Assembly: GCA_035653615.1 (NCBI GenBank)
Contig: DASRBN010000002.1
Coordinates: 1 to 64,000, forward strand
Source: Ktedonobacteraceae bacterium
GTDB taxonomy: Bacteria > Chloroflexota > Ktedonobacteria > Ktedonobacterales > Ktedonobacteraceae
Length of the DNA stretch: 64,000 nt
Reading direction: 5' to 3'
Translations under genes and position numbers: made by a program
The notes under the pieces: model-generated
Database searches by the model: none
What the model was told of the DNA's origin: nothing
Seen by the model: only the letters and a program-made list of their open reading frames with translations
Shown here: positions 12,470-64,000 of the stretch, piece after piece
Layout: each line of letters starts with the position of its first letter
Numbering within the stretch: position 1 is the first letter of the stretch

Positions 12470-12494
12470 AAATATTTGCACCTCTCTTTTCTTA

Positions 12495-13553
12495 TTAGTG
12501 ACCAATGATGGTTCGCGCGTCGTAGGTTTGGGGGCGCGTTTGTCCCACCCTGCATCCACCACCCCCGCCAGAATTCGAGCCACAGGTGCAGCCACCGGTC
12601 TTGCCACAGCCACAAGCGGATGAGCCGGCAGAAGCTTTCGCCGTCGCATTGCTCACTCCACAGGAGCCACAGCCGCCACCAGCTTTGATGCCACAGGAGG
12701 CACAGCCACCAGCCTTATCGTTTGTATCCTGTTGAGGTTGTACCGGAACCTGTATAATGACGCCACTTTCCAGCATCACCTCAACGGAAGATTTCGGCAC
12801 ATTGATGGAAACTACCCTGCCCGTGCCGCTGGGGGTATCCAGAAAGGTGCCGACCTGCGGCATGGTCTGTTTGGCCTGGATGTAGTTCTCGTTTTCGTAT
12901 GAGAGACAACATAGCAGGCGGCCACAGACGCCGGAGATTTTGGCGGGGTTGAGCGGCAAATCCTGCTCTTTAGCCATCTTGATCGACACGACGCCAAAAT
13001 CGCTGATCCACGAACTACAACACAAGGTTTTGCCGCATGGGCCTACCCCGCCTTGCAGCTTGGCCTGGTCGCGCGCTCCGATTTGACGCAGTTCAATGCG
13101 CGTGCGGAATGTGGCTGCCAGGTCTCGCACGAGGGCGCGGAAATCGACCCGCTCATCGGCGGTAAAGTAGAATGTCAGGCGGCTGCCATCAAACGTATAT
13201 TCGGCCTCGACTAATTTCATAGGCAACTGGTGCTGCGCGACATGCCTGGCACATTGCACCAGCGCGTCTTTCTCTTTTCCTTTGAAAGAGAGCATCATGC
13301 GCAGTTCGTCTTCGGTAGCCAGGCGCAGAACAGGCTTTAAGGGGTCGCTTAGTTCGCTTGCGGCGATCTTCTTGGAGGCGATAACGACCCTACCAGCTTC
13401 TACACCGCGTACCGTTTCGACAATGACATATTGACCTGTCGTATAAGTTGCCCCCTGTGGGTCGAAGTTGTAAATACGCCCGGCGGGACGAAAACGAATG
13501 CCGACGATGGTAACCATGTTCTCTACGGTTGTCGCAGAAGACATTGTTGTCAA
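12495..13553 (-). CDS. ricT: PSP1 C-terminal domain protein RicT (YaaT) with unusual Cys/Gly-rich C-terminal tail
   Basis: PSP1 domain signature (FDGSRLTFYFTADERVDFRALVRDLAATFRTRIELRQIGARD...GPCGKTLCCSSWISDFG...CGRLLCCLSYE). About 70-aa C-terminal tail rich in Cys and Gly. Confidence 0.75.
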   Translation of the reverse strand: MTTMSSATTVENMVTIVGIRFRPAGRIYNFDPQGATYTTGQYVIVETVRGVEAGRVVIASKKIAASELSDPLKPVLRLATEDELRMMLSFKGKEKDALVQCARHVAQHQLPMKLVEAEYTFDGSRLTFYFTADERVDFRALVRDLAATFRTRIELRQIGARDQAKLQGGVGPCGKTLCCSSWISDFGVVSIKMAKEQDLPLNPAKISGVCGRLLCCLSYENENYIQAKQTMPQVGTFLDTPSGTGRVVSINVPKSSVEVMLESGVIIQVPVQPQQDTNDKAGGCASCGIKAGGGCGSCGVSNATAKASAGSSACGCGKTGGCTCGSNSGGGGGCRVGQTRPQTYDARTIIGH

Positions 13554-13585
13554 TCCTTACGTTGGCTCTCTATCCTTAGAGGGCG

Positions 13586-14158
13586 TTACATTTCGTTAGT
13601 GAGCAGGATGGCCTCGGCAACTTCGCGCATGGACTTGCGATTGTTCATGCTGGCCTTCTGTATCTTGCGAAATGCCTCTTGCTCGCTGAGACCCTGCTTT
13701 TCCATCAACAACCCCTTGGCGCGTTCGACGACCTTGCGCGTCTCCAGTTGCTCGCTAAGCGTGCGCGTCTTTTCTTCGAGGGCGCGAAACTCACCATAGC
13801 GCGCCAGGGCAACTTCTATGGCCGGGGTCACCTCGCTTTCGCGCAGGGGCTTGACGATATAGTTGACCACTCCTGCTTCTTTGGCTCGCTCGACCAGTGG
13901 CTGGTCGCCAAAAGCGGTGAGCAACAGGACGGGGGCTATTTTTTCCTGCGTGAGCGTTTCTGCCGCCGTGATGCCATCCATATCAGGCATACGAATATCC
14001 ATAATGACCAGGTCGGGACGCAACTCGCGGGCGAGGTTGACGGCGCTTATGCCGTCGCCTGCCTCACCGACTACCAGATAACCCTGCTTGGTCAGAACAT
14101 CTTTCAAATCCATGCGCTGAATCGTTTCGTCATCAGCAATTATTACACGTGTAGGCAT
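13586..14158 (-). CDS. ANTAR-domain response regulator (AmiR/NasT family), orphan
   Basis: REC domain (VIIADDETIQRMDLKDVL...DLVIMDIRMPDMDG) plus C-terminal ANTAR (ERAKGLLMEKQGLSEQEAFRKIQKASMNNRKSMREVAEAIL). Strong RBS AAAGGAGAA before ATG 14158. Confidence 0.8.
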   Translation of the reverse strand: MPTRVIIADDETIQRMDLKDVLTKQGYLVVGEAGDGISAVNLARELRPDLVIMDIRMPDMDGITAAETLTQEKIAPVLLLTAFGDQPLVERAKEAGVVNYIVKPLRESEVTPAIEVALARYGEFRALEEKTRTLSEQLETRKVVERAKGLLMEKQGLSEQEAFRKIQKASMNNRKSMREVAEAILLTNEM

Positions 14159-15832: not shown

Positions 15833-16660
15833 TTATACACTCCCTGTCAAACTGATTCTCTCCCTCCGCCACTCCAACTTGCTATACTTCTCCTCGACCA
15901 ACTGCTGAGCCATCTCCCATTCCGACGCGCTCAACTCGCCAGGCACAAACTCTGCCCGCAAAGCCTCACCAAAACCGCTACGGAAGGTATGAGCGACATC
16001 ATCCCAGGATGCACCGGGCACGAAGGTGTGCAGGGGCGTCGTCTTTTCGCGATATTGGGCCAGGGCCTCCTGGCGCGAATCTTCATTCGGGAAGCGCAAC
16101 ATGGCGAAAAACTCGGCGGAACGATCATCGAGCGGGAGCGAACCCTGTTGCAGCAGGGCATCATCCTTCCAGACCTGGGCGCTACCGACCAGTTTGAAGC
16201 CCCCGCTGGTGAGATCGGCCTGCGTAGAGGAGGCAAAACAGGCAGCCGAAGGATGTTTGCTCACGCGCTCATCGCTGAGTTCGGCCCGCACACCCAAAAG
16301 GTTGAGAGCGGCGAGCAAACCCTGGGCGAGATAGGCATAGGCGGCCACTACGCCCGCCGGAACGCCGAAGCGCTTACCGATAACGATGCTGTAGGTAAAT
16401 TCATCGCAGTGATAGACGGCACGCCCACCCGTTGGCCGGCGTACCAGCGCGACTCCCTGTTGTTCGCACACATCGCGCAGGATTTCGCGTTCGATACTCT
16501 GGAAGCGTCCCAGCGAGATGGACGGCTGCGACCAGCGAAAGACGCGCAGAGTTGGAGGCGCCTCGCCCCGCAGGTGATGGGTCAGCACCGCCTCGTCGAT
16601 AGCCATATTCATAGCGGCATGCTGGATGCCGGTGTTTAAGAAGCGATAGGGTTCGGACAT
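15833..16660 (-). CDS. Lipoate-protein ligase / octanoyltransferase family protein (BPL_LplA_LipB domain)
   Basis: MSEPYRFLNTGIQHAAMNMAIDEAVL...LRVFRWSQPSISLGRFQ...RRPTGGRAVYH. Start re-placed at ATG 16660 with an AAGGAA RBS. Confidence 0.7.
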   Translation of the reverse strand: MSEPYRFLNTGIQHAAMNMAIDEAVLTHHLRGEAPPTLRVFRWSQPSISLGRFQSIEREILRDVCEQQGVALVRRPTGGRAVYHCDEFTYSIVIGKRFGVPAGVVAAYAYLAQGLLAALNLLGVRAELSDERVSKHPSAACFASSTQADLTSGGFKLVGSAQVWKDDALLQQGSLPLDDRSAEFFAMLRFPNEDSRQEALAQYREKTTPLHTFVPGASWDDVAHTFRSGFGEALRAEFVPGELSASEWEMAQQLVEEKYSKLEWRRERISLTGSV

Positions 16661-53513: not shown

Positions 53514-54545
53514 CTAAGACACCCGGGCAACGACCGCCGTCACATTGTCCGGGCCGCCCTGCTCGTTTGCCAGTTCGATCAGCCGCTGCACGCTTTGCCG
53601 CGGCTCGAATTGCTGCACAACTTGGGCGATCTGTTCATCGCTGATGATTCTTGAAAGGCCATCGGTGCAAAGCACAACGATATCGCCAGATTGCACCGGT
53701 TCTGTGAAGACATCCACCTCGACAAAGGGATCAGTACCCATGCAGCGCGTGATCTTATTGCCCTGCTGCGCGCGCGCCTGCTCTACAGTCAACAGGCCAG
53801 CCCGCACCTGCTCTGCTTCCGGCGTGTGATCCTGCGATACCTGCTTCACCTGCCCATTCCGCACAATGTAAGCACGGCTATCACCCACGTTTGCCACATA
53901 AAGTGTATCGCCTTTCAGTACTGCCGCGACGCAGGTCGATCCCATACTATGTTCCTGATCCGGCGGCTGCGCCTGGTTTTGATTAGCTGCATAGATGAGC
54001 GCACTCGCATGTTCCACGGCATGGCGCAGAGAAGCTGCGATATCGTCGCTCTCATTCTGGTAATAGGCCTCGCGCACATGTTTGATGACCATTTCGCTGG
54101 CCACTTCTCCCTTAGTATGCCCTCCCAACCCGTCGGCCACCACAAACAGAGCACCTTTTTTCGTCATTATCTGGGTATCATCAGGAATAACAGAGATCAT
54201 ATTATCTTCATTACTTTCACGCTTGCGTCCGATATCAGTTAGTTGAGCGACATTCAGGCTAAATTGCTGTACCATAAGAATAGGTTCCTTTCCTTTCATC
54301 TTAGAAACAAATTCACGCGTATGTTCAATCAATGCCGTCTTTGCCAGATCATACAGGATGGCTCCCCATAGCCTGGTCACACCCGCCTGCCCGCGTTCAA
54401 GCAGCGCCTCGCGGTAACAGTCATAGAAGGTCTGCATCATCTCGCGGCCAAATTCCCGCCTGAACCGGCGAGGATAGCATCGCAGGAGCAGACTATAGCA
54501 ATGTTCCGAGAACGATGCGTTCCTCTTCAATGGAGTTGTCGTCAT
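53514..54545 (-). CDS. PP2C-family Ser/Thr protein phosphatase with ~85-aa N-terminal helical extension of unknown function
   Basis: The PP2C core begins at LTDIGRKRESNEDN and includes ALFVVADGLGGHTKGEVAS...GDTLYVANVGDSRAY...VLCTDGL. Start overlaps the padR stop (ATGA). Confidence 0.8.
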   Translation of the reverse strand: MTTTPLKRNASFSEHCYSLLLRCYPRRFRREFGREMMQTFYDCYREALLERGQAGVTRLWGAILYDLAKTALIEHTREFVSKMKGKEPILMVQQFSLNVAQLTDIGRKRESNEDNMISVIPDDTQIMTKKGALFVVADGLGGHTKGEVASEMVIKHVREAYYQNESDDIAASLRHAVEHASALIYAANQNQAQPPDQEHSMGSTCVAAVLKGDTLYVANVGDSRAYIVRNGQVKQVSQDHTPEAEQVRAGLLTVEQARAQQGNKITRCMGTDPFVEVDVFTEPVQSGDIVVLCTDGLSRIISDEQIAQVVQQFEPRQSVQRLIELANEQGGPDNVTAVVARVS

Positions 54546-54922
54546 GGCAGGCCTCCAATCTGTTTCGGATTGGCTAAAATCTGCTTGCTCTCGATGATGC
54601 TTACCAGTTGCTCGAGCCTTTGAGCCTCGGCTTGCAGGACACGCAGGCCGAAGTTGGTCAGGCGATAGTAGCGACGGCGCTCATCATCCAGTTCGGGGTC
54701 TGGACGTTCAGCCGCCTGTTCTATTAAGCCGTCTGCCAGCATGCGCTTAATGGAGCCATAGAGCGTTCCCGGCCCCATGCGCATGGTTCCCTGAGTGCGC
54801 GCGGCGATCTCCTGCATAATGCCATAACCATGCCGCTCGCCATCCGCCAGGGCCAGCAGGATATGAAAGACGGCCGGTGTCAAAGGAAGCAGGTCCTCCG
54901 GGTTCTTTTGCGCTTTCTTCAT
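54542..54922 (-). CDS. PadR-family transcriptional regulator
   Basis: Winged HTH LLALADGERHGYGIMQEIAARTQGTMRMGPGTLYGSIKRMLADGLIEQ. C-terminal helix. Confidence 0.85.
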   Translation of the reverse strand: MKKAQKNPEDLLPLTPAVFHILLALADGERHGYGIMQEIAARTQGTMRMGPGTLYGSIKRMLADGLIEQAAERPDPELDDERRRYYRLTNFGLRVLQAEAQRLEQLVSIIESKQILANPKQIGGLP

Positions 54923-54956
54923 CGAACCTCCATTTCGATATAGGAAAACCTACGAA

Positions 54957-55000
54957 GTTACTATATCACTAACGGATATATCCGTTAGTGATATAGTAAC
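54957..55000. promoter_or_regulatory. Perfect 44-bp palindrome (22-bp arms) 35 bp upstream of padR, a candidate autoregulatory operator
   Basis: GTTACTATATCACTAACGGATAT|ATATCCGTTAGTGATATAGTAAC. The two arms are exact reverse complements. Confidence 0.6.
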
Positions 55001-55137
55001 CGGAAAAGGGGAGATTGTCAAGGGGCTATTGGCTCAATAAACGTTTATACTACTATGTGAGCAAGCAGTTCTATTACAAGCAGGTTGTTAATAGTGATTT
55101 ACCTGTCAAGCCCTGATGTGCGGTTACTCATTTTATA

Positions 55138-56712
55138 TCACTTCAGAGGCAGCGGCAACGTCGCCTGATTCGGAAGCTGCTCTGGCGCAACCTGTGGTAA
55201 GGTGAAGACGATGCGGGCGCCATGCTGATCTGTATTTTCGGCGTGGATAGTCCCGCCGTGGGCTTCGACGATGGCGCGGACGATGGTGAGACCGAGGCCG
55301 CTGCCGCCGGTGGAGACCTGGCGCGAGGCATCGGCGCGATAGAAGCGGTCGAAGACGCGCGGCAGGGCAGAGGTGGGGATGCCCTCGCCGGTATCGGTAA
55401 CGGAAACTTCGAGCATATTGCCGCACGCCTGAGCATCGATGGTGACGGTACCACCGGATGGGGTGTGGCGCAGCGCGTTATCGCAGAGATTGGTGAAGAC
55501 CCGTTTGAGCATGTCTTGATCGGCCCAGGCGGGTGGCAGATTGTAGGCAATGGCGTTGCGTGGCTCTACATTGGCGCGCTCAAATTCGGGACTCAGGACG
55601 GCCAATACGTCATCGACCAGCGCGGCCAGGCGTATTGCTTTGCGTTGGGGCTGCATGACGCCGGCCTCTACTTTCGCCATCATATGCAGGTCCTTGACCA
55701 TACGGTGCAGGCGTAGGGTTTCGCGCACGATAACGCGGCCTGTGGCCTCGTAGTCCTCGCGGCTGGTATTGACACCATCCACCAGCGACTCGCCTAATCC
55801 GGCGATGGCGGTGAGGGGAGTTGCGAGGTCATGGGTAATGTTCATGATGAGTTCGCGGCGGAAGAGTTCCTGGCGGTGCAGTTCGTTGACATCAGCCTCG
55901 AGTTTGGCGGCCATTTTATTGAAAGTACCGGCAAGCTCACCCAGCTCGCCACCTGCTCCTGTCGTGACGCGGGCGCTGTAGTCGCCAGACGCGAGTACGT
56001 GCGCGGCACTCGTCATTTTGGCGAGCGGGCGTGTGATGGTGCGTGAGAAGAGAATAGCAGCCAGGGTTGCGAGTACAGCTACGACGAGCGCGGCGATCAG
56101 GATGAACTGGCGCACGGTGGCGATAAAAGGCGGAATGGTGTCGGCGACTGCGAAACGGGGTATGACGACCAGGATACCAATGACCCGGCCGCTGCTCTGA
56201 CCACCCTCGAATACCGGTTCGACTACAAATGGGCGCGTGGAACTTCCGGGTGTACCGTTGCCAAGATCACCCACAGTTGTCGTGCCCAAACGAGCATTAC
56301 GAATGGCAGTGACTAATTTGGTGTAATCGCTCTGCTGTATCGCAGGATCGGTTACTTTCACTAAAAGAGCGCTCGTAAGAGGATGCAGGCCACCTATGCG
56401 TGGATAGACAAGCAGAGCAAATCTATTAAAGACGAGCAAGAGATTATCTTGATTTTCAGCGTTCTGCTGCGGTGTATTCGGCAAAACGTTATTGACGGCC
56501 ATTGCAAGCGTGCCATTCTGGGTATAACTGACGCCCAGCCGTTGTGAGAGGCTATTCGCAACATCAACGAGTTGTTGTTGCTCATTGGCTCCATAATAAT
56601 AGTTAATGGCGAAGATTACCGCCAATGAGAGTATTGTGGTCGCGATCAACGCTACCAACATTGACCCCAGGGCCAGCCGCCAGCGAATACTCTGCCACCA
56701 ACGCATGCGCAT
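55138..56712 (-). CDS. Sensor histidine kinase (two TM helices, periplasmic sensor, HAMP, HisKA, HATPase_c)
   Basis: H-box ELIMNITHDLATPLTAIAG. N, G1 and G2 boxes (...DTGEGIPTSALPRVFDRFYRAD...GGSGLGLTIV). Start re-placed at MRMRWWQ (ATG 56712). Confidence 0.85.
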   Translation of the reverse strand: MRMRWWQSIRWRLALGSMLVALIATTILSLAVIFAINYYYGANEQQQLVDVANSLSQRLGVSYTQNGTLAMAVNNVLPNTPQQNAENQDNLLLVFNRFALLVYPRIGGLHPLTSALLVKVTDPAIQQSDYTKLVTAIRNARLGTTTVGDLGNGTPGSSTRPFVVEPVFEGGQSSGRVIGILVVIPRFAVADTIPPFIATVRQFILIAALVVAVLATLAAILFSRTITRPLAKMTSAAHVLASGDYSARVTTGAGGELGELAGTFNKMAAKLEADVNELHRQELFRRELIMNITHDLATPLTAIAGLGESLVDGVNTSREDYEATGRVIVRETLRLHRMVKDLHMMAKVEAGVMQPQRKAIRLAALVDDVLAVLSPEFERANVEPRNAIAYNLPPAWADQDMLKRVFTNLCDNALRHTPSGGTVTIDAQACGNMLEVSVTDTGEGIPTSALPRVFDRFYRADASRQVSTGGSGLGLTIVRAIVEAHGGTIHAENTDQHGARIVFTLPQVAPEQLPNQATLPLPLK

Positions 56713-56747
56713 AGATATAGTTCCTTTGAAATGATTCATGGAAAACC

Positions 56748-57479
56748 TTAAACTGCTGTACGCGCTCCTACTTCAAATTTATAGCCGATACGCCAGACGG
56801 TTTTGATATAGCGATAGTCGGTATTTGCCTCGATTTTCTTGCGCAGCGCGCTGATATGTACATCGACGATATGACCATCGCCGTAGTAGTCATAGCCCCA
56901 GATTTTGTTCATCAGGATTTCGCGCGTAAAAACGCGATCGGGAGACTGCGCCATCAGGGCCAGCAGGTCAAATTCGGTCGGCGTTAGCGTGACTTCGAAG
57001 CCATTCACTTCGACGCGGCGTGCTAACAGGTCGATAGTAAGGCTGGGAAAGCGCAGTACGGTCTTCGCGCTCGAAGCGTGGCCGTCCGCAGCCTGCCCTT
57101 CGCCAGCATCTGTATCACCCACACGCCGCAGGATGGCTCGCACTCTGCTGACCAGTTCGCGCGGGCTGAAAGGTTTCGTCAGGTAGTCATCGGCCCCCAG
57201 GTCAAGTCCGGCAATGCGATCTTCCTCGTCGGCACGCGCCGTCAGGATCAGAATGGGCGTTTTTGACCATGCCCGAATGCGGCGGCAGACCTCGAAGCCA
57301 TCGATGGCGGGCAGCATGATATCCAGGATGACGAGATCAGGATGCGTGCGCGCGTGCAGTGCCAGCCCATCGGCACCATCTTTGGCGACTACGACATCGT
57401 AGCCGGCGTTTTTCAGATAGAGATTGAGCAGGTGAATGATGCCATCTTCATCTTCAATAATGAGGATTTTCTGGGCCAT
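56748..57479 (-). CDS. OmpR-family response regulator
   Basis: MAQKILIIEDEDGIIHLLNLYL...DLVILDIMLP. Winged-helix C-terminus ...YIKTVWRIGYKF. Confidence 0.9.
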   Translation of the reverse strand: MAQKILIIEDEDGIIHLLNLYLKNAGYDVVVAKDGADGLALHARTHPDLVILDIMLPAIDGFEVCRRIRAWSKTPILILTARADEEDRIAGLDLGADDYLTKPFSPRELVSRVRAILRRVGDTDAGEGQAADGHASSAKTVLRFPSLTIDLLARRVEVNGFEVTLTPTEFDLLALMAQSPDRVFTREILMNKIWGYDYYGDGHIVDVHISALRKKIEANTDYRYIKTVWRIGYKFEVGARTAV

Positions 57480-57666
57480 GCTATGAACTCTCCTACATAT
57501 ACCCTTGTTTTTAAATAGTACCACACCTTTTTGCTGAAAGCAGGATATTTTCAATCGTTCTCACGCCCATCGGACGAATCTTGAGCAAATCTTGAACTTT
57601 TAACTACGCCGCCCGCTCATCGCCCTTCCCATGACACCTGACAACGAGAGATACGAGGGATGACAG

Positions 57667-58809
57667 CTATTCTGACAGCTTATCATGCCGCAAGAACCTC
57701 TCCATCGCATGAGCAGCCTCTTCGTGCATCTCACGAGTTACATGCCCATAAATGTTGGCAGTGATCGCGTAACTCGCATGTCCTAATATTGCCTGCACCG
57801 TCTTCATTGGTATACCCATACTCAACAGGAGTGTAGCGGCACTATGTCGTAATTCATGGAAATGCATAGCTGGCACTCCTGCCCGTTTGAGCAACGAATA
57901 GAACCGCGCACGCAGGGTACTCGATGACAGAAACCCTCCAGCAGTATTCGGGAAAACCAGGCCAGTATCCTCTTTCCAACCCTTCTTAACTCGCTCTTGT
58001 TCCTGTGCCACGCGATGCTTAGACAACACTTCTCTCACGAAGGGAGCGAGCGTAATCGTGCGCCGACCGCTCCTCGTTTTTGGCTCGCCCATAACAAAGC
58101 CGTGAGTAGCGACATAGGAGAGCGTCCACTTCACATCGAGATATCCCTCATCCAGGTGAACATCTTCCCAATGCAGGCCAAGTAGCTCACCCTCTCGCAT
58201 ACCGGTTGCCAGGGCAACAATGAGTACCGTGCGCATCCACTCTTTCTTTGCCGCCGCTATCAATCGATGTGCCTGTTCAGGTGTCAGTGTCTTGCCCTCC
58301 GGAGTATCTACTCTTGGCAGGTCAGCACCTGCACTCGCATTTATTCCCACCAACCCCAGGCGCCTAGCATGTTCTAGCGCCTTGTGAAGGACATTATGCA
58401 TGGTGCGAATGCGATTGGGGGAAGCCCCAGTTCTCTGCTTTTCGGCATAGAACTTCTGGATATGCTGTGGTGTTAATTTCTGTAGCTTCAAGTGGCCCAG
58501 CGCAGGAATCAGGTGCGCATGGATAATACACCGATACAACTGATAAGACCCCGGACGAAGCTGCGGCTTCCGCACATCCTCTAACCAATATTCAAGGAAC
58601 TGCTTCACTGTCTGCTGGGGACCAGTCGCCAGCTTCCCCTGTTCTAGTTCGCGTTGCGCCACCCATATTTTCCGCTCAACTTCACGCTCTGTTTTCCCAT
58701 AAAAGTACTTGCGCTTATGATCTTCCAGCGTGATAAAACCAGAATAACGCCCATCTGCACGCTTATAGACCGACCCATCACCACGCCTGCGTGATTTTTC
58801 CTTAGCCAT
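57667..58809 (-). CDS. int: Tyrosine-type site-specific integrase
   Basis: Catalytic region LATGMREGELLGLHWEDV...HELRHSAATLLLSMGIPMKTVQAILGHASYAITANIYGHV (R..H..R..Y). RBS GAGGAGAA before ATG 58809. Confidence 0.9.
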   Translation of the reverse strand: MAKEKSRRRGDGSVYKRADGRYSGFITLEDHKRKYFYGKTEREVERKIWVAQRELEQGKLATGPQQTVKQFLEYWLEDVRKPQLRPGSYQLYRCIIHAHLIPALGHLKLQKLTPQHIQKFYAEKQRTGASPNRIRTMHNVLHKALEHARRLGLVGINASAGADLPRVDTPEGKTLTPEQAHRLIAAAKKEWMRTVLIVALATGMREGELLGLHWEDVHLDEGYLDVKWTLSYVATHGFVMGEPKTRSGRRTITLAPFVREVLSKHRVAQEQERVKKGWKEDTGLVFPNTAGGFLSSSTLRARFYSLLKRAGVPAMHFHELRHSAATLLLSMGIPMKTVQAILGHASYAITANIYGHVTREMHEEAAHAMERFLRHDKLSE

Positions 58810-58894
58810 CGCGATTTCTCCTCATGAAGAAAAGCTGTTCTATATTCAAATCGGCTACCAGTAAATCACTCCTACAAACCCGCTAAAACCACGC

Positions 58895-59101
58895 CTACGC
58901 ACTCTGTTCCTCGCACTGCTTGAGCCACTTTTGTAGCGACTCAGGATGGATGCGCCGCACTCCTCGCAATTGAATAGACGGCAACCCCTTATAATAGATC
59001 AGGTTATACACCGTTTGCCGACACACGCCCAACTGGACAGCCACATCAGGTATAGAAAGCAACAATGGTTGCGCTATCGATACTTTTTTTCGTCGTGCCA
59101 T
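58895..59101 (-). CDS. xis: Excisionase-family HTH DNA-binding protein
   Basis: MARRKKVSIAQPLLLSIPDVAVQLGVCRQTVYNLIYYKGLPSIQL. RBS GAGGAGGAGG before ATG 59101. Lies immediately upstream of int on the same strand. Confidence 0.6.
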   Translation of the reverse strand: MARRKKVSIAQPLLLSIPDVAVQLGVCRQTVYNLIYYKGLPSIQLRGVRRIHPESLQKWLKQCEEQSA

Positions 59102-59217
59102 AAACCTCCTCCTCACTGAACAGGGGCGGCAGTATCCAGGAATCGGCTCCCATCAAACACTGCTACGAATTCTGTTCTTCACGGTTGTGTTAACAGCAAG
59201 CTATTAAAAATCTGCAC

Positions 59218-59265
59218 ATGCTATAAGCATAGGCAAAAACAAAAAAACTATGCTGTGAGCATAGT
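59218..59265. promoter_or_regulatory. Two related palindromes (ATGCT-ATA-AGCAT and CTATGCT-GTG-AGCATAG) upstream of xis-int
   Basis: catgctataagcatagg ... ctatgctgtgagcatag. Candidate repressor or activator sites for the xis-int promoter. Confidence 0.3.
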
Positions 59266-59307
59266 CTCATACAAGTCCCGAATACGTCCTCCTTGCCTTC
59301 TTGCACT

Positions 59308-59562
59308 TCACTCCTCTGAAAAGCGACAAAGCAGCCAGGCATAAAACTCTGGATAGCGATGTTCGATCAAGGTGAGGATGTCCTTGAACCCTCTCCTTTC
59401 GCACGTTTCCAGCAGGTACACTCCAATCACTTCATGCCTGACATGCCACCAGGCAGGCCGGGTCGGGTCATTCCCCAGGATGTACACCTCCCCATCAGTT
59501 CGGAACACCAGTTCCTGAAGAGGACATCGCAACACATACTGCTCTACTCGTTCCCAATCCAT
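59308..59562 (-). CDS. Hypothetical protein (84 aa) of the integrated element
   Basis: Start re-placed at MDWERV (ATG 59562) after a strong AGAAGGAG RBS. No similarity recognised. Confidence 0.4.
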   Translation of the reverse strand: MDWERVEQYVLRCPLQELVFRTDGEVYILGNDPTRPAWWHVRHEVIGVYLLETCERRGFKDILTLIEHRYPEFYAWLLCRFSEE

Positions 59563-59634
59563 GGTTCGCTCCTTCTCTGCATCAGAAGGTGACACAAGTA
59601 AAAAAGCTGTGCCCTATTCCCACCAGAACCATCA

Positions 59635-60231
59635 CTACCCTGGCCGAAACGCCCGTGCCACATGCTCCCAAACGATTAGAGTGTAGGTGTTCTGTATCAG
59701 ATCGGAAATCAGCCGTGAGATGAATGCCTGCTTGCACCGATGCAGTGCCGAGGCATCAATCCAGGCATCCACCATCGCTCTCAACCCCTCGTGCAACGCA
59801 TCAGCTGCCGCATAGCCATTCGGAGCCTCATGCATCACTCTGCTCGCCCAATCCTGCACTTGGCGATCATCCAGGAGATTGCGGTAGAGCGTCATCGTAA
59901 AGAGGTTTTCACAAGTCTGCGCTTCTCCCACCAGTAATGCGACCAGGCCATCCCAATCCGCATACGCCAGCGCTGAACCAGCCAGGTCCCACACCAACAG
60001 TAACAGGCTCGCATCATGCTGCCTATTGCGACCAGGAAAGCGCGTGAGCCAGTGGTCCAATGCCAGCCTCACCCACATTTCTACCAGCCGACCAGCAGCA
60101 CCCTCATTCGGTTCATGGGCTACCAGTTCCACAAGCTCATTCATCAGTTGTTCCTCATTGCTGAGGTGCAGGTGTATCAGCCAGGTGAACTTGTTTTCCC
60201 AGCCGTTGTACGTGTTCAGTTCCAATTTCAC
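59635..60231 (-). CDS. Hypothetical protein (about 170–198 aa) of the integrated element
   Basis: Intact ORF with Trp/Leu-rich helical composition. Start is GTG 60231 or ATG 60144 (GAGGAA RBS). Follows the rep stop by 14 bp. Confidence 0.4.
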   Translation of the reverse strand: MKLELNTYNGWENKFTWLIHLHLSNEEQLMNELVELVAHEPNEGAAGRLVEMWVRLALDHWLTRFPGRNRQHDASLLLLVWDLAGSALAYADWDGLVALLVGEAQTCENLFTMTLYRNLLDDRQVQDWASRVMHEAPNGYAAADALHEGLRAMVDAWIDASALHRCKQAFISRLISDLIQNTYTLIVWEHVARAFRPG

Positions 60232-60244
60232 CTCACTTTCATCT

Positions 60245-61342
60245 TCAACTTGCCCAACGTCGTTGGTTACGCTGGTACGCCCAGATGTTAATCACGCGCC
60301 GCGACAGGTTGCGCCGCCCCTCATGCAGATCGATGAGCGCCTCTAACAAGGCCTTGCGGCACCGCCGCTTATACTCTTTATAATCCTGGGTGAATTCCTC
60401 ACACTGCACCAGTGCCCAGGATGACCGTTTGACTACCGGTGTGTCGCTCTCTCCAGGAATGCCAGCAGTATCACTCACTTCACTGGCCGCCGCATCACCT
60501 GCTGAAGCCTCATGCCCCGACTGTTCCATGGACTGCTGCTCAAGCTCAGCGAACAACCGGGCGCGGAGGTCAGATACCTTTTCAGGGAAGAAATGACGCG
60601 AGTAGCGAATGCGCCGAGCACGACTCACCAGTTCCACGGTGTAGCTCTGCCGTTCCTCAACCACCTTGCCTGTCTCATCCAGACCGATCACCGCTGCCTC
60701 CCGTTCTTCCCGCCGGATGCCCTTTTCACCCGCGGTCAGACTTTTCATGAGGTATTTCGTGACGTAGCCAATCACCTGGGGCTTGCGGATCGCTTCCACA
60801 TGCACGATATAGGCCACCCCATGCCGTGCCGAGCGCCAGGCTTCCTTGAGAATGTCATGCGGAATGAAATCCGCCCCCTTGACCAACAGATGCCAGTGAA
60901 ACCCATTCTCTTCAAAGTCGCTGTGCCGTTCCAGGACGGCAAAGTATTCGATGGCGTAGGCTTCACGCGCCCCAATGTGTTCACGCCCCCGACCTGTTGA
61001 ACCGCGCCGCAGGTATTGCAGAAAGGTAGTCAGCGCGCGGGCCGCTTCCTCAACCGTCTTGCCCGCTTTGCTGAGGGTAATGAACAGGGTCGGTTCTGCC
61101 GCTTTGACCAGTTGACGCCACTGATCGACTTTGCGTGGTCCACAAAAGAGACAATCCCAGCGATTACAGCGCGCACGAACGACTTCACCGGTCTCCTGAT
61201 TGATGAAGACGTGACGTAAAGCCCAGGCGTTGGGACAGAATAGGAGCGTTTCTATCCCGTGCTTTTCCGCCAGGTCTGCCTGCTCATGCAGGGGAAGTAT
61301 GGGAAAACGCGAAGCAGATGTTGTCTCAGTCTCATGTGCCAT
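60245..61342 (-). CDS. Rolling-circle replication initiator of the phiX174 gpA / RepSA (pSAM2) HUH family
   Basis: HUH motif FHWHLLVKG. Two-Tyr active-site motif YVTKYLMKS (compare phiX174 gpA YVAKYVNK). N-terminal Cys cluster CNRWDCLFCGPRK. Start re-placed at MAHETE (ATG 61342) after a GGGGGAGGTGG RBS. Confidence 0.65.
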   Translation of the reverse strand: MAHETETTSASRFPILPLHEQADLAEKHGIETLLFCPNAWALRHVFINQETGEVVRARCNRWDCLFCGPRKVDQWRQLVKAAEPTLFITLSKAGKTVEEAARALTTFLQYLRRGSTGRGREHIGAREAYAIEYFAVLERHSDFEENGFHWHLLVKGADFIPHDILKEAWRSARHGVAYIVHVEAIRKPQVIGYVTKYLMKSLTAGEKGIRREEREAAVIGLDETGKVVEERQSYTVELVSRARRIRYSRHFFPEKVSDLRARLFAELEQQSMEQSGHEASAGDAAASEVSDTAGIPGESDTPVVKRSSWALVQCEEFTQDYKEYKRRCRKALLEALIDLHEGRRNLSRRVINIWAYQRNQRRWAS

Positions 61343-61440
61343 AGCACCACCTCCCCCTTGGAACCGCACTGCTCAGGAGCAAAAAGAGGAACCCCTCAGG
61401 GCTTTTTGTCGTGAAGAACGAACCAGGACGTGTGTGACTT

Positions 61441-61560
61441 ACGCTTAGAAGGGTCAAGGGAAGGCCCCGGCGGTTGTACGACGTGCGGGCGGGGCCCCTT
61501 CCCCACCCGCCGCGTACAACCGCCACCCCGCCAGCCAGCACCCATCCCCACCACCCCAGG
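61441..61560. other. GC-rich structured non-coding region with nested inverted repeats, a candidate double-strand origin or attachment/regulatory region of the element
   Basis: Perfect 12-bp inverted repeat GGCGGTTGTACG...CGTACAACCGCC enclosing GCGGGCGGGGCCCCTTCCCC. Outer pairing GGGAAGGCCCCG/CGGGGCCCCTTCCC. Directly upstream of rep. Further upstream lies gcaaaaag-N15-ctttttgc. Confidence 0.4.
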
Positions 61561-61758
61561 CGAGCGAGCCGAACAGCGCAACCCGAACGTGGTTGGTCGG
61601 CAAGGCGGTGGCGAGAGATAGGCCCCCGCAACAGCCGCACCACCACCCTGATCGGCCAGCCCCCAACTAGTGCAGCCAGGCGAAACGCACCCAGCATACC
61701 ACGCGCCACAACGGAGCCACCCGCTTCCCCCGCCGCCGTCACCGTTTCATCAACCGTG

Positions 61759-62127
61759 TCATCTCACTCCCTCCTTCCCATGAGGGTGATGCAGCGACCT
61801 TCCATGAGACGGACGCACGGCCAGCCTTACCCCATTGCCACGATAAAGCAGCGAATGATCGCATGCCGCCGCCACATGCCCCGCTGAGCGCACCCCAGAC
61901 GCCCGCATCACCTGTTCAACCGCCACAAACGCACACGACGCCTCCGCGAACGTCGTGATCGGCAACGAGCGATACCCATCCGCACACTGCGCCCAGGCCG
62001 GCCAGATCGCCATATCCAAACGCATCGGGAACTTCTCTTTTCTCTCCATTTCCTCGCCATCACCAGGTGAGCAACCAGCGAGGAGAGAGCAGATGGCACC
62101 AATGGCTTGCTTGCCATGCGTCACCAT
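61759..62127 (-). CDS. Hypothetical protein (122 aa), start adjacent to the PrimPol stop
   Basis: ORF with ATG 62127 immediately after the PrimPol stop codon. Composition is GC-biased like its neighbours. No similarity recognised. Confidence 0.25.
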   Translation of the reverse strand: MVTHGKQAIGAICSLLAGCSPGDGEEMERKEKFPMRLDMAIWPAWAQCADGYRSLPITTFAEASCAFVAVEQVMRASGVRSAGHVAAACDHSLLYRGNGVRLAVRPSHGRSLHHPHGKEGVR

Positions 62128-63089
62128 CCTTCTTCTCGAATACGCCGCCACATCGCTTGTGGACTGACCTCATAGTACAAACACAGAAAATCAAACAGGT
62201 TGCCAGCCCGTTGCCAGGTGTAACAATACCAATGCGGGTCCGGCCCACCGAAGACCTGAAAGCTGGGACGCACATCCCCACGAGAATGATGCGCTTTGAA
62301 CGGACACGACCCCAGACCACGCTGATCGAGCACCACGTAGCGACCGATCACCTCGACCAGGTCTTGTGCCTGGCACCATGCTCGAATGCTCGCATACCTC
62401 CCATGGCTTGCCATAGGCGCACTCCCTCTCACCTCACCACTCTCCACAGGCCCCTTTCCTGCCGTTGTTTGCCCAGCCACCGCCACCTCTACAGGAACCG
62501 CCACCGGCTGGACCTGCTGACAGAGCCAGGTGCAGCACTCGGCCACCGTTTCCCCAACCGGCACCAGGTTCCCAGAGCTATCCATCGCAACAAAGGGATA
62601 CCAGCCACGACTGAGCCGATGCACCCCCAGGGGCAGTCGAATGAGCGACCCGGACCCACCAGGCGCGAGCATATCCTGCTTGGGATACAACTCGACCCCC
62701 AGCGCCACCGCAGAGGGCACGAGCCAGGCGCGTACTAAAGCGGCGGGCGTCGGTTCCCTCAGATGTACCCACAGATGCCCACCGCGCCGGCTGGCTTCCA
62801 ACACCGAGGGGATACCGGAGTGTGCCAGTTCGCAGGAGAGCGCCGCCAACTGCTCGAGACCCATTTCCCCATCGGCATCGAAGACGGCGAAACGGCACGT
62901 ACTCTGCGCATCCAGCAGGTACGTGCCCAGCGTCCACTGACCGCACAGATGCGCCGCCAAGAGCGACAGGGAAAGCGGTTCCTGCACCCGCCAGTAGGAG
63001 CCATCGCGCTGCTGCACAGCATACTGGTCAGCGCAGTGGACAAACAGCGCGGCATAGGCTGCCAGCAGCTCAGGCGCGACCGGTTCCAT
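62121..63089 (-). CDS. Primase-polymerase (AEP/PrimPol domain) with C-terminal DnaG-type CHC2-like zinc finger
   Basis: AEP motif I FAVFDADGE (DxD). Motif II RRGGHLWVHL (GxH). Motif III QDMLAPGGSGSLIRLPLGVH (RLP.G). C-terminus GSCPFKAHHSRGDVRPSFQVFGGPDPHWYCYTW...NLFDFL resembles the DnaG zinc-binding domain CPFHxExxPSFxV...HCFGCG. Start re-placed at MEPVAPE (ATG 63089). Confidence 0.65.
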   Translation of the reverse strand: MEPVAPELLAAYAALFVHCADQYAVQQRDGSYWRVQEPLSLSLLAAHLCGQWTLGTYLLDAQSTCRFAVFDADGEMGLEQLAALSCELAHSGIPSVLEASRRGGHLWVHLREPTPAALVRAWLVPSAVALGVELYPKQDMLAPGGSGSLIRLPLGVHRLSRGWYPFVAMDSSGNLVPVGETVAECCTWLCQQVQPVAVPVEVAVAGQTTAGKGPVESGEVRGSAPMASHGRYASIRAWCQAQDLVEVIGRYVVLDQRGLGSCPFKAHHSRGDVRPSFQVFGGPDPHWYCYTWQRAGNLFDFLCLYYEVSPQAMWRRIREEGW

Positions 63090-63357
63090 CGCCAGCTGCC
63101 TCCTGCACCAGCACCTGCAACCAGGCACACACCTCGTGCAGCGTCACGACCCCCAACGTGACAGCCTCACTGATCAGCAGGTCATACGACAACAGGAACA
63201 GCACAAACAGTTCCGGGAGCTGCTGTACCTGCTCGAGACAGCCTTGCCGTTGCGCTTCCTGGATGAGCGCACGCAGGGAGCGCCGGACTTGCGCACGCGC
63301 CGCCAGGCCGTCACGCCCACTACACCCGTGCAGATGTTCCTCTCCTGTTATCCCCAT
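63070..63357 (-). CDS. Hypothetical protein (95 aa) upstream of PrimPol
   Basis: Intact ORF. Its ATG lies inside the stop region of the upstream small ORF (8-nt overlap ATGGGGATAA). No similarity recognised. Confidence 0.35.
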   Translation of the reverse strand: MGITGEEHLHGCSGRDGLAARAQVRRSLRALIQEAQRQGCLEQVQQLPELFVLFLLSYDLLISEAVTLGVVTLHEVCAWLQVLVQEAAGDGTGRA

Positions 63358-63515
63358 CGCAGCCCCTCAATCGTCCCAGCAGGGACAACGACCATCACGT
63401 GTTGAACCGCTGGCCGTGCGTTCATGTTGGGGTAATGATGCGCTCCATAGAGTTGCCAGGCCAGCAACCCGATCACCAGGATCGTCGCCAGGTAGACGAT
63501 CAGACGAAATCGCAT
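63348..63515 (-). CDS. Small membrane protein (55 aa) not present in the ORF track
   Basis: MRFRLIVYLATILVIGLLAWQLYGAHHYPNMNARPAVQHVMVVVPAGTIEGLRWG. Strong RBS AAGGAG 7 nt before ATG 63515. One TM helix. Stop overlaps the next gene start. Confidence 0.45.
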   Translation of the reverse strand: MRFRLIVYLATILVIGLLAWQLYGAHHYPNMNARPAVQHVMVVVPAGTIEGLRWG

Positions 63516-63542
63516 AGGATACTCCTTTCTTTCTTACAAACT

Positions 63543-63986
63543 TCATGCTTCTTGCAGGTGCAGCTTGCCCTGAAACTGCTTGTAGGCCTCGATTTGCTCC
63601 AGGTAGTCCCGCGCACTGTTGTAGAGGCCCTCCCCCAACTCGGTGCCAGGGGCAGGAGCCGGTAACGGATACGCCTCCAGGTGGGGAATGGAGAGACTGA
63701 GTTCCTGTTGCACCGCGTGCCAGAGGACTTGCAAGCGCTCGCTGTAGCCGGCCATGCGCCCGGCGAACTCCTCCCGCAACTGTTCGTAGTCGGCCCGCAA
63801 CGCCTCCACATCAGCAGCGTAGCGGCCCGTCACCTGCTGCCAGATGCTCGACAACTCGCGCTCTAAGGCATCTTCCGCTTGCTGGACCCGTCCAGACAGC
63901 GAGGTGTCATAGTAGCACGCGATGCATTGTTGCAGCAGGGCTTGTAACTCCCCTGGATAGAGCGCTTCCAGGGCATCCAACTCCAC
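63543..63986 (-). CDS. Hypothetical protein (147 aa or more; may extend past the window edge)
   Basis: Intact ORF on the element strand. Helical Gln/Glu/Leu-rich composition. No similarity recognised. Confidence 0.35.
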   Translation of the reverse strand: MELDALEALYPGELQALLQQCIACYYDTSLSGRVQQAEDALERELSSIWQQVTGRYAADVEALRADYEQLREEFAGRMAGYSERLQVLWHAVQQELSLSIPHLEAYPLPAPAPGTELGEGLYNSARDYLEQIEAYKQFQGKLHLQEA

Positions 63987-64000
63987 GGCTCCCTCCCCAT

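Follow-up and report, generated by a model that had tools for sequence, protein, structure and literature searches.

A 14.2-kb integrative element of Ktedonobacteraceae that pairs a gpA-type initiator with a primase-polymerase belongs to a conserved family

The chromosome of a Ktedonobacteraceae bacterium (Chloroflexota) carries a 14,161-bp mobile element, and the 64,000-nucleotide stretch of DNA that we analysed (the window) stops inside it. An identical public contig (L035) prolongs the window past its end, and on the joined sequence the element is bounded by two perfect 43-bp direct repeats, with zero mismatches and zero matches expected by chance. The attR core (AAAAGTTCAAGATTTGCTCAAGATTCGTCCGATGGGCGTGAGA) lies at 57559-57601, between the stop of the integrase gene and the start of a response-regulator gene; this and all other features given here with window coordinates are on the minus strand. 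The second copy, attL, is at L035 1754-1796 (virtual window 71720-71762), about 7.7 kb beyond the window end. An earlier, sequence-only reading of the window had proposed an integrated element, and these repeats, with int and xis at one end of the 14.16-kb unit, bear it out, but its boundary is the attR core and not the integrase stop. The reading was also right that the int-proximal junction is not a tRNA gene, as the window has no tRNA gene, and we found no Rfam family at the attR site. The GC difference from the flank that it described is not real: the element has a GC content of 0.552, compared with 0.559 +/- 0.022 in host 2-kb windows, and the profile inside the element varies from 0.47 to 0.61. 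A cluster of (A/T)AGCTGTCA / TGTCA repeats is found at the 3' end of int (57632-57682), and a tandem pair of the same motif is located about 95 nt inside attL (L035 1891-1911). Four of the seven matches to this motif in 20 kb make up two tandem pairs adjoining the two att cores, and these repeats are candidate arm-type binding sites for the integrase. We found neither an attP circular junction nor an attB empty site for the 14.2-kb element itself; all public contigs that carry it have it in the integrated state.

The integrase, excisionase, Rep, PrimPol and two unknown ORFs that had been named from the sequence were all confirmed as intact genes at the coordinates given here, with support from profile searches for the first four and for one of the two ORFs, now a DUF7249 gene. 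The tyrosine integrase (380 amino acids; 57667-58809) matches PF00589 (8e-32), PF14659 (2.5e-17) and phrog_1 (8e-76), and identical copies of the protein are encoded on 19 public contigs. It is followed, in order of rising window coordinates, by a 68-amino-acid excisionase/HTH_17 protein (58895-59101; PF12728, 2.8e-11; TIGR01764, 4.3e-9), by an 84-amino-acid protein with no family match (59308-59562), which some relatives keep at another position, and by a 196-amino-acid DUF7249 protein (59635-60225; PF23907, 1.9e-6; phrog_871), the gene for which is directly downstream of rep throughout the family. A called gene for a 122-amino-acid protein with no family match (61759-62127) has a start that overlaps the PrimPol stop. 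Two further small proteins, one of 95 amino acids with a single hydrophobic segment (63070-63357) and one of 55 amino acids with an N-terminal transmembrane segment (63348-63515), are what stands of the 'small-protein operon' once assigned to 63070-64000; the remaining ORF, at 63543-63986, turned out to be the C-terminal 147 amino acids of a 443-amino-acid Mini-A-like protein.

Rep (365 amino acids; 60245-61342) is a rolling-circle replication initiator of HUH superfamily I. It matches PF23343 (REP_ORF2-G2P) with 36 bits against a cut-off of 27.8, and contains a CxxC-type N-terminal motif (RCNRWDCLFCGPRK), motif 1 (TLFITLS), motif 2 (HWHLLV) and motif 3 (YVTKYLMK), the last two of which are invariant across 26 homologues. 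Its distant matches were to one RCR plasmid Rep and to microvirus initiators only, and an hhalign comparison with a microvirus initiator, in which every catalytic motif was in register, gave a probability of 93.8% (E 1.8e-7). Relaxase families gave no match to Rep in the profile searches. These matches place the HUH protein among replication initiators of the phiX174 gpA/microvirus type and not among relaxases, as the sequence-only reading had held, but its RepSA-family label was not borne out: the RepSA profile scored 17.5 bits, under the cut-off of 34. Between the PrimPol and rep genes lies a GC-rich hairpin (61459-61538) whose stem spans about 24 bp; it has a predicted DNA fold of -35.7 kcal/mol (z -4.6) and shows compensatory changes in 6 of 19 pairs. 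A covariance model built on it matches the hairpin once in the 64-kb window and again in the related loci L017, L019, L020, L029 and L032, with a new match in L045 (3.8e-6). We regard the hairpin as a candidate replication origin; it could be a double-strand origin (dso), a single-strand origin (sso) or a transcriptional element.

PrimPol (322 amino acids; 62121-63089) consists of an AEP domain fused to a DnaG-type zinc ribbon, in agreement with the initial assignment. It matches PF22548 (2.6e-19), a CRISPR-associated PrimPol model (1e-21) and the CHC2 zinc ribbon PF01807 (2.1e-6; 27.9 bits against a cut-off of 24.9); the ligand pattern of the ribbon is C-H-H-C. The closest solved structures are Marinitoga CAPP (7nqd) and the DnaG ZBD (1d0q). 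The catalytic residues D70, D72, H104 and E132 and the zinc ligands C261, H266/267, H285 and C288 are invariant in ten homologues, and the gene reads as intact.

The Mini-A/topoisomerase VI-A-like gene enters the window with its C-terminal third (63543-64000) and continues to virtual position 64874. The protein combines 5Y-CAP and Toprim domains with a C-terminal coiled coil, matches phrog_6247 ('DNA topoisomerase'; 4.4e-27) and has invariant residues at E175, DFDPAG and VELDAL; its AF2 model (pLDDT 76.6) is most similar in the PDB to Topo VI-A (1d3y; probability 1.0, E 5e-5). Beyond the window, the element encodes the rest of this protein, a NUDIX hydrolase and a TehB-like methyltransferase placed at the end opposite attR, an XRE-TPR repressor divergent from a sigma-70 family factor, and six small unassigned genes. 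One long rightward operon ends with rep, the DUF7249 gene, xis and int beside attR. Membrane proteins of the element are g250, which is polytopic, and three small proteins with transmembrane segments; the six conserved small proteins could hide transfer or virion functions. No called gene of the whole element has a P-loop or Walker A motif, and the element therefore encodes no helicase, FtsK/TraB translocase or terminase; the absence of a helicase, first seen in the window, thus extends to the complete element.

The gene order of the element recurs in more than 14 Ktedonobacteria loci (L017, L018, L019, L020, L022, L023, L031, L043/L044, L045, L048 and the P0105 contig among them), mostly beside tRNA or tmRNA genes, and the integration sites of these relatives are the 3' ends of tRNA-Leu, tRNA-Pro, tRNA-Phe and tmRNA genes. 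In most of these loci the PrimPol gene precedes rep by 0.3-2.2 kb; in L026 the distance is 6.4 kb, and matches there are limited to g250, PrimPol, a NUDIX homologue and Rep. Because the same order is found at so many loci, Rep and PrimPol form a conserved module and not a chance 'composite', as had been suggested. The Rep part of it does not strictly require PrimPol, because two relatives (L029 and L032) keep Rep and the hairpin with no detectable PrimPol. Tyrosine and serine recombinase modules are interchangeable within the family (L048). One relative, 70% identical, occurs in two states, one integrated and the other a circle or concatemer of 18,637 bp: L043 has an exact repeat unit of this length inside a 37,497-bp contig, L044 is the same element in the integrated state, and the two sequences part exactly at the tRNA-Leu junction. 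The element is a member of a conserved, undescribed Ktedonobacteria family.

We think it probable, with the full working proposed here included, that the 14.2-kb element is a site-specifically integrated, self-replicating, plasmid-like element. Int and Xis would recombine the 43-bp cores to release a circle; the cores are present here, and the circular form was observed for the 70%-identical relative only. The gpA-type Rep would then nick an origin, which would lie within the conserved hairpin upstream of rep or close to it, for leading-strand rolling-circle synthesis with host polymerase and helicase. Judging from its family and by analogy with plasmid-encoded primases, PrimPol would prime the displaced single strand by means of its DnaG-like zinc ribbon, and complementary-strand synthesis would then be independent of host RNA polymerase or DnaG. 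In rolling-circle and conjugative replicons, such primases provide an established third way of priming the second strand (PMC4595007), and in RSF1010 an HUH nickase is coupled to a primase that is AEP-like (PMC5862659). More speculatively, the Mini-A-like protein may, from its family membership, cleave or resolve replication products. With no NTPase gene of its own, the element must rely on the host or a helper for unwinding and for any transfer between cells.

Some of these features would also suit a temperate virus or phage satellite, in which the small and membrane proteins would serve virion or hijacking functions and Rep, PrimPol and Mini-A would form the genome replication module. Reports of Mini-A proteins to date come from viruses and proviruses (PMC7671362), Rep has its closest recognisable relatives among microvirus initiators, and this reading would fit the 14-19 kb size, the repressor/operon layout, the membrane proteins and the occurrence of one relative as a free circle or concatemer. 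However, PHROGs and Pfam searches found no capsid, portal, terminase, packaging ATPase or Zot-like ATPase, the P-loop is absent altogether and 2.9 million IMG/VR contigs include no relative, and we consider this explanation unlikely, if worth keeping in view. Somewhat more doubtful still is a scheme in which PrimPol is the real replicase (theta or strand-displacement) and the HUH protein mainly a relaxase-like nickase for single-strand transfer, so that the element would be mobilised by the conjugation machinery of a helper and PrimPol would prime the incoming strand in the recipient. Rep-type initiators do double as relaxases in some ICEs and conjugative-plasmid primases act in recipients (PMC4595007), the RSF1010 pairing is a precedent (PMC5862659), and the element itself lacks a transfer ATPase; against this, Rep matches initiator families only, the family loci examined contain no oriT, coupling protein or T4SS component, and the two relatives without detectable PrimPol retain Rep and the hairpin. 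That the element is a true AICE (an actinomycete-type conjugative element) with a double-strand DNA translocase diverged beyond recognition is very improbable: its layout is pSAM2-like (regulator, NUDIX, rep-xis-int), its hosts are mycelial and actinomycete-like and its small membrane proteins could be Spd-like, but it lacks the FtsK/SpoIIIE Tra that defines AICEs, its called genes contain no Walker A motif, no P-loop protein was seen in relatives at a position conserved within the element, those relatives whose neighbour genes carry Pfam annotation gave no FtsK/Tra family match, and the RepSA score is under its cut-off.

The pSAM2-type AICEs of Streptomyces have a RepSA-Xis-Int operon, the regulators KorSA and Pra, the NUDIX protein Pif and the transfer protein TraSA. 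Like them, our element integrates site-specifically with direct repeats in a size range of 11-14 kb and has a rep-xis-int cluster at one end. It also shares with them a NUDIX hydrolase gene, an HUH initiator with two tyrosines from the same superfamily and a repressor gene that diverges from one of activator-like type, and its family likewise has interchangeable Tyr/Ser recombinase modules. Unlike them, it lacks an FtsK/SpoIIIE Tra and recognisable Spd proteins, its Rep is closer to PF23343 than to RepSA, it has additional PrimPol and Mini-A genes, its host phylum is Chloroflexota and it occupies an intergenic 43-bp site instead of a tRNA gene. The description 'pSAM2-like' therefore holds for the layout but not as AICE membership: without a Tra the element does not count as an AICE, and the RepSA score and the host phylum point the same way. 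SLP1/pMEA-type AICEs are likewise integrative elements in which a primase-polymerase gene adjoins a second replication gene, but RepSA and Prim-Pol clades are separate among actinomycete AICEs and the pairing of Rep with PrimPol is not reported there (PMC3218068; Ghinet et al. 2011), which agrees with the initial view that the pairing is unusual. In SLP1/pMEA-type elements the partner is RepAM or RepPP and not an HUH rolling-circle initiator, the AEP is PF09250 and not PF22548/CAPP-like with a DnaG zinc ribbon, and Tra is present.

The IncQ plasmids RSF1010/R1162 encode the HUH nickase MobA and the AEP-fold primase RepB', and have the hairpins ssiA and ssiB. Our element resembles them as a small replicon with an HUH nickase and its own primase, which would act on hairpin-forming single-strand initiation sites and would make replication independent of host priming; unlike the element, RSF1010 also encodes the helicase RepA and the iteron-binding initiator RepC, has a conjugative relaxase as its HUH protein and is not integrative. 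Rep shares a homologous catalytic core with Microviridae gpA/VP4 and small RCR plasmid Reps (such as Geobacillus pGTG5 Rep), the Cys motif, motif 1 (xTLT), the HUH motif and the YxxKYxxK motif all aligning, but identity is only 22-29%, Rep has a long C-terminal extension, and the element, unlike Microviridae, is a 14-kb integrative unit with none of the microvirus structural genes. The Mini-A-like protein has the 5Y-CAP and Toprim folds, the E...DxDxxG metal site and, in VELDAL, a match to the xWELDAL T2BI box of Mini-A, and it too is carried by a mobile element with no B subunit nearby (Takahashi et al. 2020, PMC7671362). It is longer than Mini-A (443 versus about 300 amino acids) and ends in a coiled coil of about 130 amino acids, the context of its putative catalytic tyrosine is RRVHY compared with R..(F/Y)Y, and the element that carries it has no viral hallmark genes. 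Finally, PrimPol shares catalytic motifs with Marinitoga piezophila CAPP, its closest solved AEP homologue (PDB 7nqd; E 1e-12), but stands outside a CRISPR context and is fused to a DnaG-type zinc ribbon in place of the CAPP partner domains.

We listed the open reading frames of window 54000-64000 and found a co-directional minus-strand block, with assignments made by profile search. The genes named in the sequence-only reading were all present on that strand, each with profile support: a tyrosine integrase (Int; 57667-58809; PF00589, 8e-32; PF14659, 2.5e-17), an excisionase-type HTH_17 protein (Xis; 58895-59101; PF12728, 2.8e-11; TIGR01764, 4e-9), an HUH initiator (Rep; 60245-61342; PF23343 REP_ORF2-G2P, 36 bits against a cut-off of 27.8) and an AEP primase-polymerase with a DnaG-type CHC2 zinc ribbon (PrimPol; 62121-63089; PF22548, 2.6e-19; PF01807, 27.9 bits against a cut-off of 24.9). 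The same strand encodes a DUF7249 protein (59635-60225; PF23907, 1.9e-6) and two proteins, of 84 aa (59308-59562) and 122 aa (61759-62127), without a family match. Approximately 20 public contigs, drawn from metagenomes of soil and peat and from Ktedonobacteraceae MAGs, encode the exact sequences of the integrase, of Rep and of a 55-aa protein. In these exact-protein look-ups, the ATG-start versions of PrimPol and Rep gave matches and their longest GTG-start open reading frames gave none. One public contig, L007, is identical to the window across all 13,756 overlapping bases, and another, L035, provides a longer extension (window position = 73516 - L035 position).

L035 contains two copies of a perfect 43-bp direct repeat, AAAAGTTCAAGATTTGCTCAAGATTCGTCCGATGGGCGTGAGA, at 1754-1796 and 15915-15957, for which no chance matches are expected. 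The second copy corresponds to window 57559-57601, in the gap that separates the stop of the integrase gene from the start of the response-regulator gene. These repeats give the element a length of 14,161 bp, with its right 6.4 kb inside the window. Its left end lies 420 nt past L007 and was located after the second extension; no att repeats were found within L007 or in relatives with short left flanks. A 12-15-nt match, TGCGGCATGATA(A/G)GC, had been considered as the att repeat and was dropped as a chance match once the 43-mer was found. The element has the flanking direct repeat (43 bp, perfect) and the recombinase gene at one end that are expected of a site-specific integrative element, and the direct repeat that the sequence-only reading had proposed to look for at this junction was found past the window. 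Tandem (A/T)AGCTGTCA motifs just within both ends (L035 1891-1911 and 15835-15855) are candidate arm-type integrase sites. The target is an intergenic site: ARAGORN detected no tRNA in the window, in agreement with the earlier statement that the int-proximal junction is not a tRNA gene, no Rfam family lies at the att target site, and an Rfam scan of the element and flanks returned only hairpin-like miRNA noise. The att repeat was one half of the earlier proposal; the other half, an empty site, was not found for this element. A scan of metagenome contigs with the 43-mer gave no match, neither attB nor attP was obtained, and public contigs held the integrated form alone. The GC and codon difference from the flank on which that reading had drawn was rejected as a boundary signal. 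In one JGI sample (3300005607), one contig stops and a second begins within the start of the response-regulator gene, the two overlapping by 120 nt at L007 13815-13934 (window 57409-57528). This break in the assembly, on the response-regulator side of int, was discarded as an att marker because it falls 31 nt outside the core; it may reflect strain variation or an assembler k-mer effect.

Read from attL to attR, the element begins with a NUDIX hydrolase, a TehB-like SAM methyltransferase (minus), an 80-aa protein and an XRE-HTH/TPR regulator (minus), from which a sigma-70 family factor gene diverges. Seven small open reading frames follow (74, 34, 75, 72, 174, 111 and 250 aa), of which the 34-aa product has one hydrophobic segment and the 250-aa product two, and then a 443-aa protein, open reading frames of 55 and 95 aa, PrimPol and the 122-aa reading frame. 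A 416-bp non-coding gap separates the latter from Rep, after which DUF7249, the 84-aa reading frame, Xis and Int form the right end. No Walker A motif was found in any called gene, and the element therefore has no helicase, FtsK-like translocase or terminase; the absence of a helicase, noted before for the visible part, extends to all called genes of the whole element. Promoter and terminator scans showed no enrichment relative to shuffles, and PADLOC returned generic domain matches only and no defence system.

Several of the off-window genes have features of their own. The 80-aa protein (L035 3280-3522, minus; 69994-70236 in window numbering continued past 64000) is a homologue of the integrase N-terminal arm-binding domain, with 42% identity over 38 aa to the element's own integrase (E 3e-7) and further matches to relatives' integrases; judged from its sequence, it could be a competitor for arm sites, a directionality factor or a remnant. 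The TehB-like methyltransferase is a conserved accessory gene that adjoins the XRE-TPR regulator in three elements (L035 2585-3271, L048 714-1361 and the P0105 contig 894-1928) and in two of them is either fused to a Lumazine_bd_2 domain or next to one. The 111-aa protein (L035 7293-7628) shares 70-81% identity with its counterparts in four close relatives (L017, L018, L022 and L023) and 32-50% in more distant ones. Its sequence appears rich in beta structure; it could be an OB-fold protein that binds single-stranded DNA, a role in keeping with a rolling-circle replicon.

The Rep profile, run against species-representative genomes, found 18 loci, all in Ktedonobacteria, including Dictyobacter kobayashii, D. 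aurantiacus and Ktedonobacter robiniae. In a protein collection (E <= 0.001), it matched 504 proteins and the 443-aa protein matched 3002; the few with a source name were Ktedonobacteraceae. Searching the 18 loci with all element proteins by tblastn revealed a recurring order: the XRE-TPR regulator and sigma factor, the 74-, 75-, 72-, 174-, 111- and 250-aa proteins, then the 443-aa protein, PrimPol, Rep, DUF7249, Xis and Int, with four more cases on further contigs. Of the 14 loci with sufficient flank, 12 have PrimPol upstream of Rep; two loci, L029 and L032, keep Rep and lack PrimPol. The sequence-only reading had taken Rep and PrimPol together as a sign of a composite or previously uncharacterised replicon type; we reject the composite idea because this synteny is conserved across Ktedonobacteria loci. 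In relatives, int is usually followed directly by a tRNA or tmRNA gene (tRNA-Leu, tRNA-Pro, tRNA-Phe or tmRNA); the intergenic site described here is an exception. Cargo varies among members; Dictyobacter and one further relative (L043) carry restriction and defence genes. Genes for FtsK/Tra, capsid or terminase were found in none of the relatives. A scan of IMG/VR with the Rep profile found no relatives, and none of the papers searched gives an account of such elements in Ktedonobacteria. The element is an intact representative of a family of integrative, self-replicating elements that is conserved in Ktedonobacteria and apparently undescribed.

Individual members depart from this plan. L032, from Ktedonobacter robiniae SOSP1-30, is probably a minimal copy or one in decay: its integrase match is distributed over two frames (11539-12670) and no PrimPol or 443-aa homologue lies within 10 kb upstream, with Rep, a conserved hairpin and a tRNA-Leu junction remaining. 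In L048, a 658-aa large serine recombinase (12061-14037) replaces the tyrosine integrase and excisionase, and the gene for the 443-aa protein is missing; modules for recombination and for accessory replication functions can thus be swapped between family members.

A relative at 70% Rep identity was found in two forms from different metagenomes. In one (L043; JGI 3300054962, Ga0556603_001008), a 37,497-bp contig consists of 2.01 units of an 18,637-bp repeat whose copies match exactly (0 mismatches in the 2,509 bp that can be seen twice). In the other (L044; JGI 3300062132), this sequence sits integrated within a contig of 191 kb. L043 and L044 agree at every base as far as position 14,924, after which L044 continues into tRNA-Leu(CAG) and L043 into the other end of the element, the signature of attP versus attR. 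These data show that the family leaves the chromosome and occurs as either a circle or a head-to-tail concatemer. Calculation places both ends of the L043 contig, themselves unseen, within approximately 130 nt of the att core, which would fit an assembly-graph branch caused by the integrated and circular forms coexisting in the sample.

We then asked what kind of protein Rep is. Motif 1 (TLFITLS), the HUH motif (HWHLLV) and the two-tyrosine motif (YVTKYLMK), the latter two already singled out from the sequence, are invariant in 26 homologues, and with its YxxxY arrangement Rep has the features of HUH superfamily I (phiX174 gpA type). Outside its own family, its sole database relatives are the Rep of a 1.5-kb Geobacillus rolling-circle plasmid and microvirus replication initiators. 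Aligned with the microvirus initiator profile (probability 93.8%, E 1.8e-7), the Rep profile pairs TLFxTLT with FVTLT (motif 1), HWHLLV with HYHMIL (HUH) and YVTKYLTK with YVMKYINK (two-tyrosine), and the N-terminal Cys motif is aligned as well. Against RepSA (PF20199), Rep scores 17.5 bits and a Dictyobacter homologue 26.3 bits, both below the gathering threshold of 34. Conjugative relaxase (MOB) profiles in Pfam, NCBIfam and PHROGs gave no match. A PDB sequence search with the Rep profile returned only noise, and the Foldseek result was meaningless because the AlphaFold model (pLDDT 52.6) is too low in confidence to use. With PF23343 above its cut-off, the sequence evidence identifies Rep as a replication initiator and not a relaxase, upholding its earlier description as a rolling-circle initiator.

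PrimPol has the AEP motifs I (DxD, D70/D72), II (H104) and III (acidic, E132) and a DnaG-type CHC2 zinc ribbon with a C-H-H-C variant of the ligand pattern. The ten homologues compared all retain these four residues and the zinc ligands C261, H266/267, H285 and C288. Among solved structures, PrimPol is closest to the Marinitoga CRISPR-associated PrimPol (CAPP, 7nqd, 1e-12) and the DnaG zinc-binding domain (1d0q). On these residues, PrimPol is intact, and the possibility raised earlier that it is a degraded fragment did not hold.

Between the 122-aa/PrimPol genes and Rep lies a GC-rich hairpin with a stem of approximately 24 bp (window 61459-61538; -35.7 kcal/mol as DNA, z = -4.6). Near-identical or compensated hairpins occur in five relatives (L017, L019, L020, L029 and L032), with double compensatory changes in 6 of 19 pairs. 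A covariance model found an extra copy in L045 (3.8e-6), weak copies in Dictyobacter loci and a single copy in the 64-kb window. The hairpin always occupies the PrimPol-to-Rep interval and is kept where PrimPol is absent: L029 and L032 retain it together with Rep, which weakens the idea that it belongs to PrimPol rather than Rep. It is our best candidate for an origin, either a dso (nick site) or an sso (single-strand priming site). A 136-aa GTG reading frame (61332-61742, minus) overlaps the hairpin and the high-GC (0.65) gap; absent from public gene calls, it is probably a by-product of GC-rich non-coding sequence and not a gene.

The 443-aa protein, whose C terminus is encoded at window 63543-63986, matches phrog_6247 'DNA topoisomerase' (4.4e-27). 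The best solved match of its AlphaFold model (pLDDT 76.6) is topoisomerase VI subunit A (1d3y; probability 1.0, E 5e-5, approximately 320 aligned columns). Invariant residues include E175, DFDPAG (227-232) and VELDAL (297-302). E175 and DFDPAG correspond to the E...DxDxxG metal site, and VELDAL to the T2BI box, xWELDAL, by which 'Mini-A' proteins are defined (PMC7671362). No Bergerat-fold gene (B subunit) was found in the element. The protein thus resembles Mini-A in its 5Y-CAP and Toprim fold, E and DxDxxG residues, T2BI box and lack of a B subunit, but is 443 aa long compared with approximately 300 aa for a typical Mini-A.

These features suggest how the element might work. Excision by Int and Xis would come first; Rep would then nick the origin, with rolling-circle synthesis by host polymerase and helicase. 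A plasmid-encoded primase is one route to second-strand synthesis (PMC4595007), and by analogy PrimPol would prime the displaced strand. The Mini-A-like protein may, speculatively, cleave or resolve replication products. The XRE-TPR repressor and sigma factor are probably the switch, like KorSA and Pra of pSAM2, and transfer would use host or helper functions or the small proteins without an assigned role. A bolder reading, which we consider possible but doubtful, is that a gpA-type nickase, a zinc-ribbon PrimPol priming at a hairpin sso and a stand-alone Spo11/TopoVI-A-like cleavage enzyme form an NTPase-free module in first-seen, Ktedonobacteria-wide integrative episomes that spread without DNA translocase or terminase, either as a new virus-like or vesicle-borne element or as an obligate helper hitch-hiker. 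The element itself would carry the pSAM2-like integrative-replicative design beyond Actinobacteria, into the actinomycete-like Chloroflexota. The lack of an NTPase in an abundant, conserved and at least sometimes episomal family raises the question of how it moves between cells. With relatives in cultured Dictyobacter and Ktedonobacter strains, among them D. kobayashii Uno11, D. aurantiacus S27 and K. robiniae SOSP1-30, the family is a tractable setting for Mini-A function and allows asking whether an element-encoded PrimPol frees rolling-circle replication from host priming.

Among known systems, a tailed, corticovirus-like or filamentous prophage is not supported: PHROGs and Pfam searches found no capsid or coat, terminase, packaging or Zot-like ATPase gene and there is no P-loop, although divergent folds are possible. 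The pSAM2/AICE-like description in the sequence-only reading stands as an analogy of layout. The element shares with pSAM2 the rep-xis-int end, a divergent regulator pair, a NUDIX gene, its size and a swappable recombinase, and it has the site-specific tyrosine or serine recombinase of AICEs (PMC3218068). Membership of the AICEs does not stand. No FtsK/SpoIIIE Tra was matched by Pfam, PHROGs or NCBIfam, and the hosts are Ktedonobacteraceae, Dictyobacter and Ktedonobacter and not Actinomycetales. For the replication protein, which in AICEs is of RepSA, RepAM or Prim-Pol type, the element has functional analogues: a Rep below the RepSA threshold and a PrimPol that matches PF22548, not PF09250. 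In actinomycete AICEs, Prim-Pol partners RepAM or RepPP, and RepSA clades carry no Prim-Pol (PMC3218068), so the pairing of Rep with PrimPol is new relative to that literature, and the trio of rolling-circle initiator, dedicated PrimPol and Mini-A is unreported for AICEs. The pairing is nevertheless mechanistically precedented, most closely by RSF1010, in which an HUH nickase is combined with an AEP-fold primase acting on ssi hairpins (PMC5862659).
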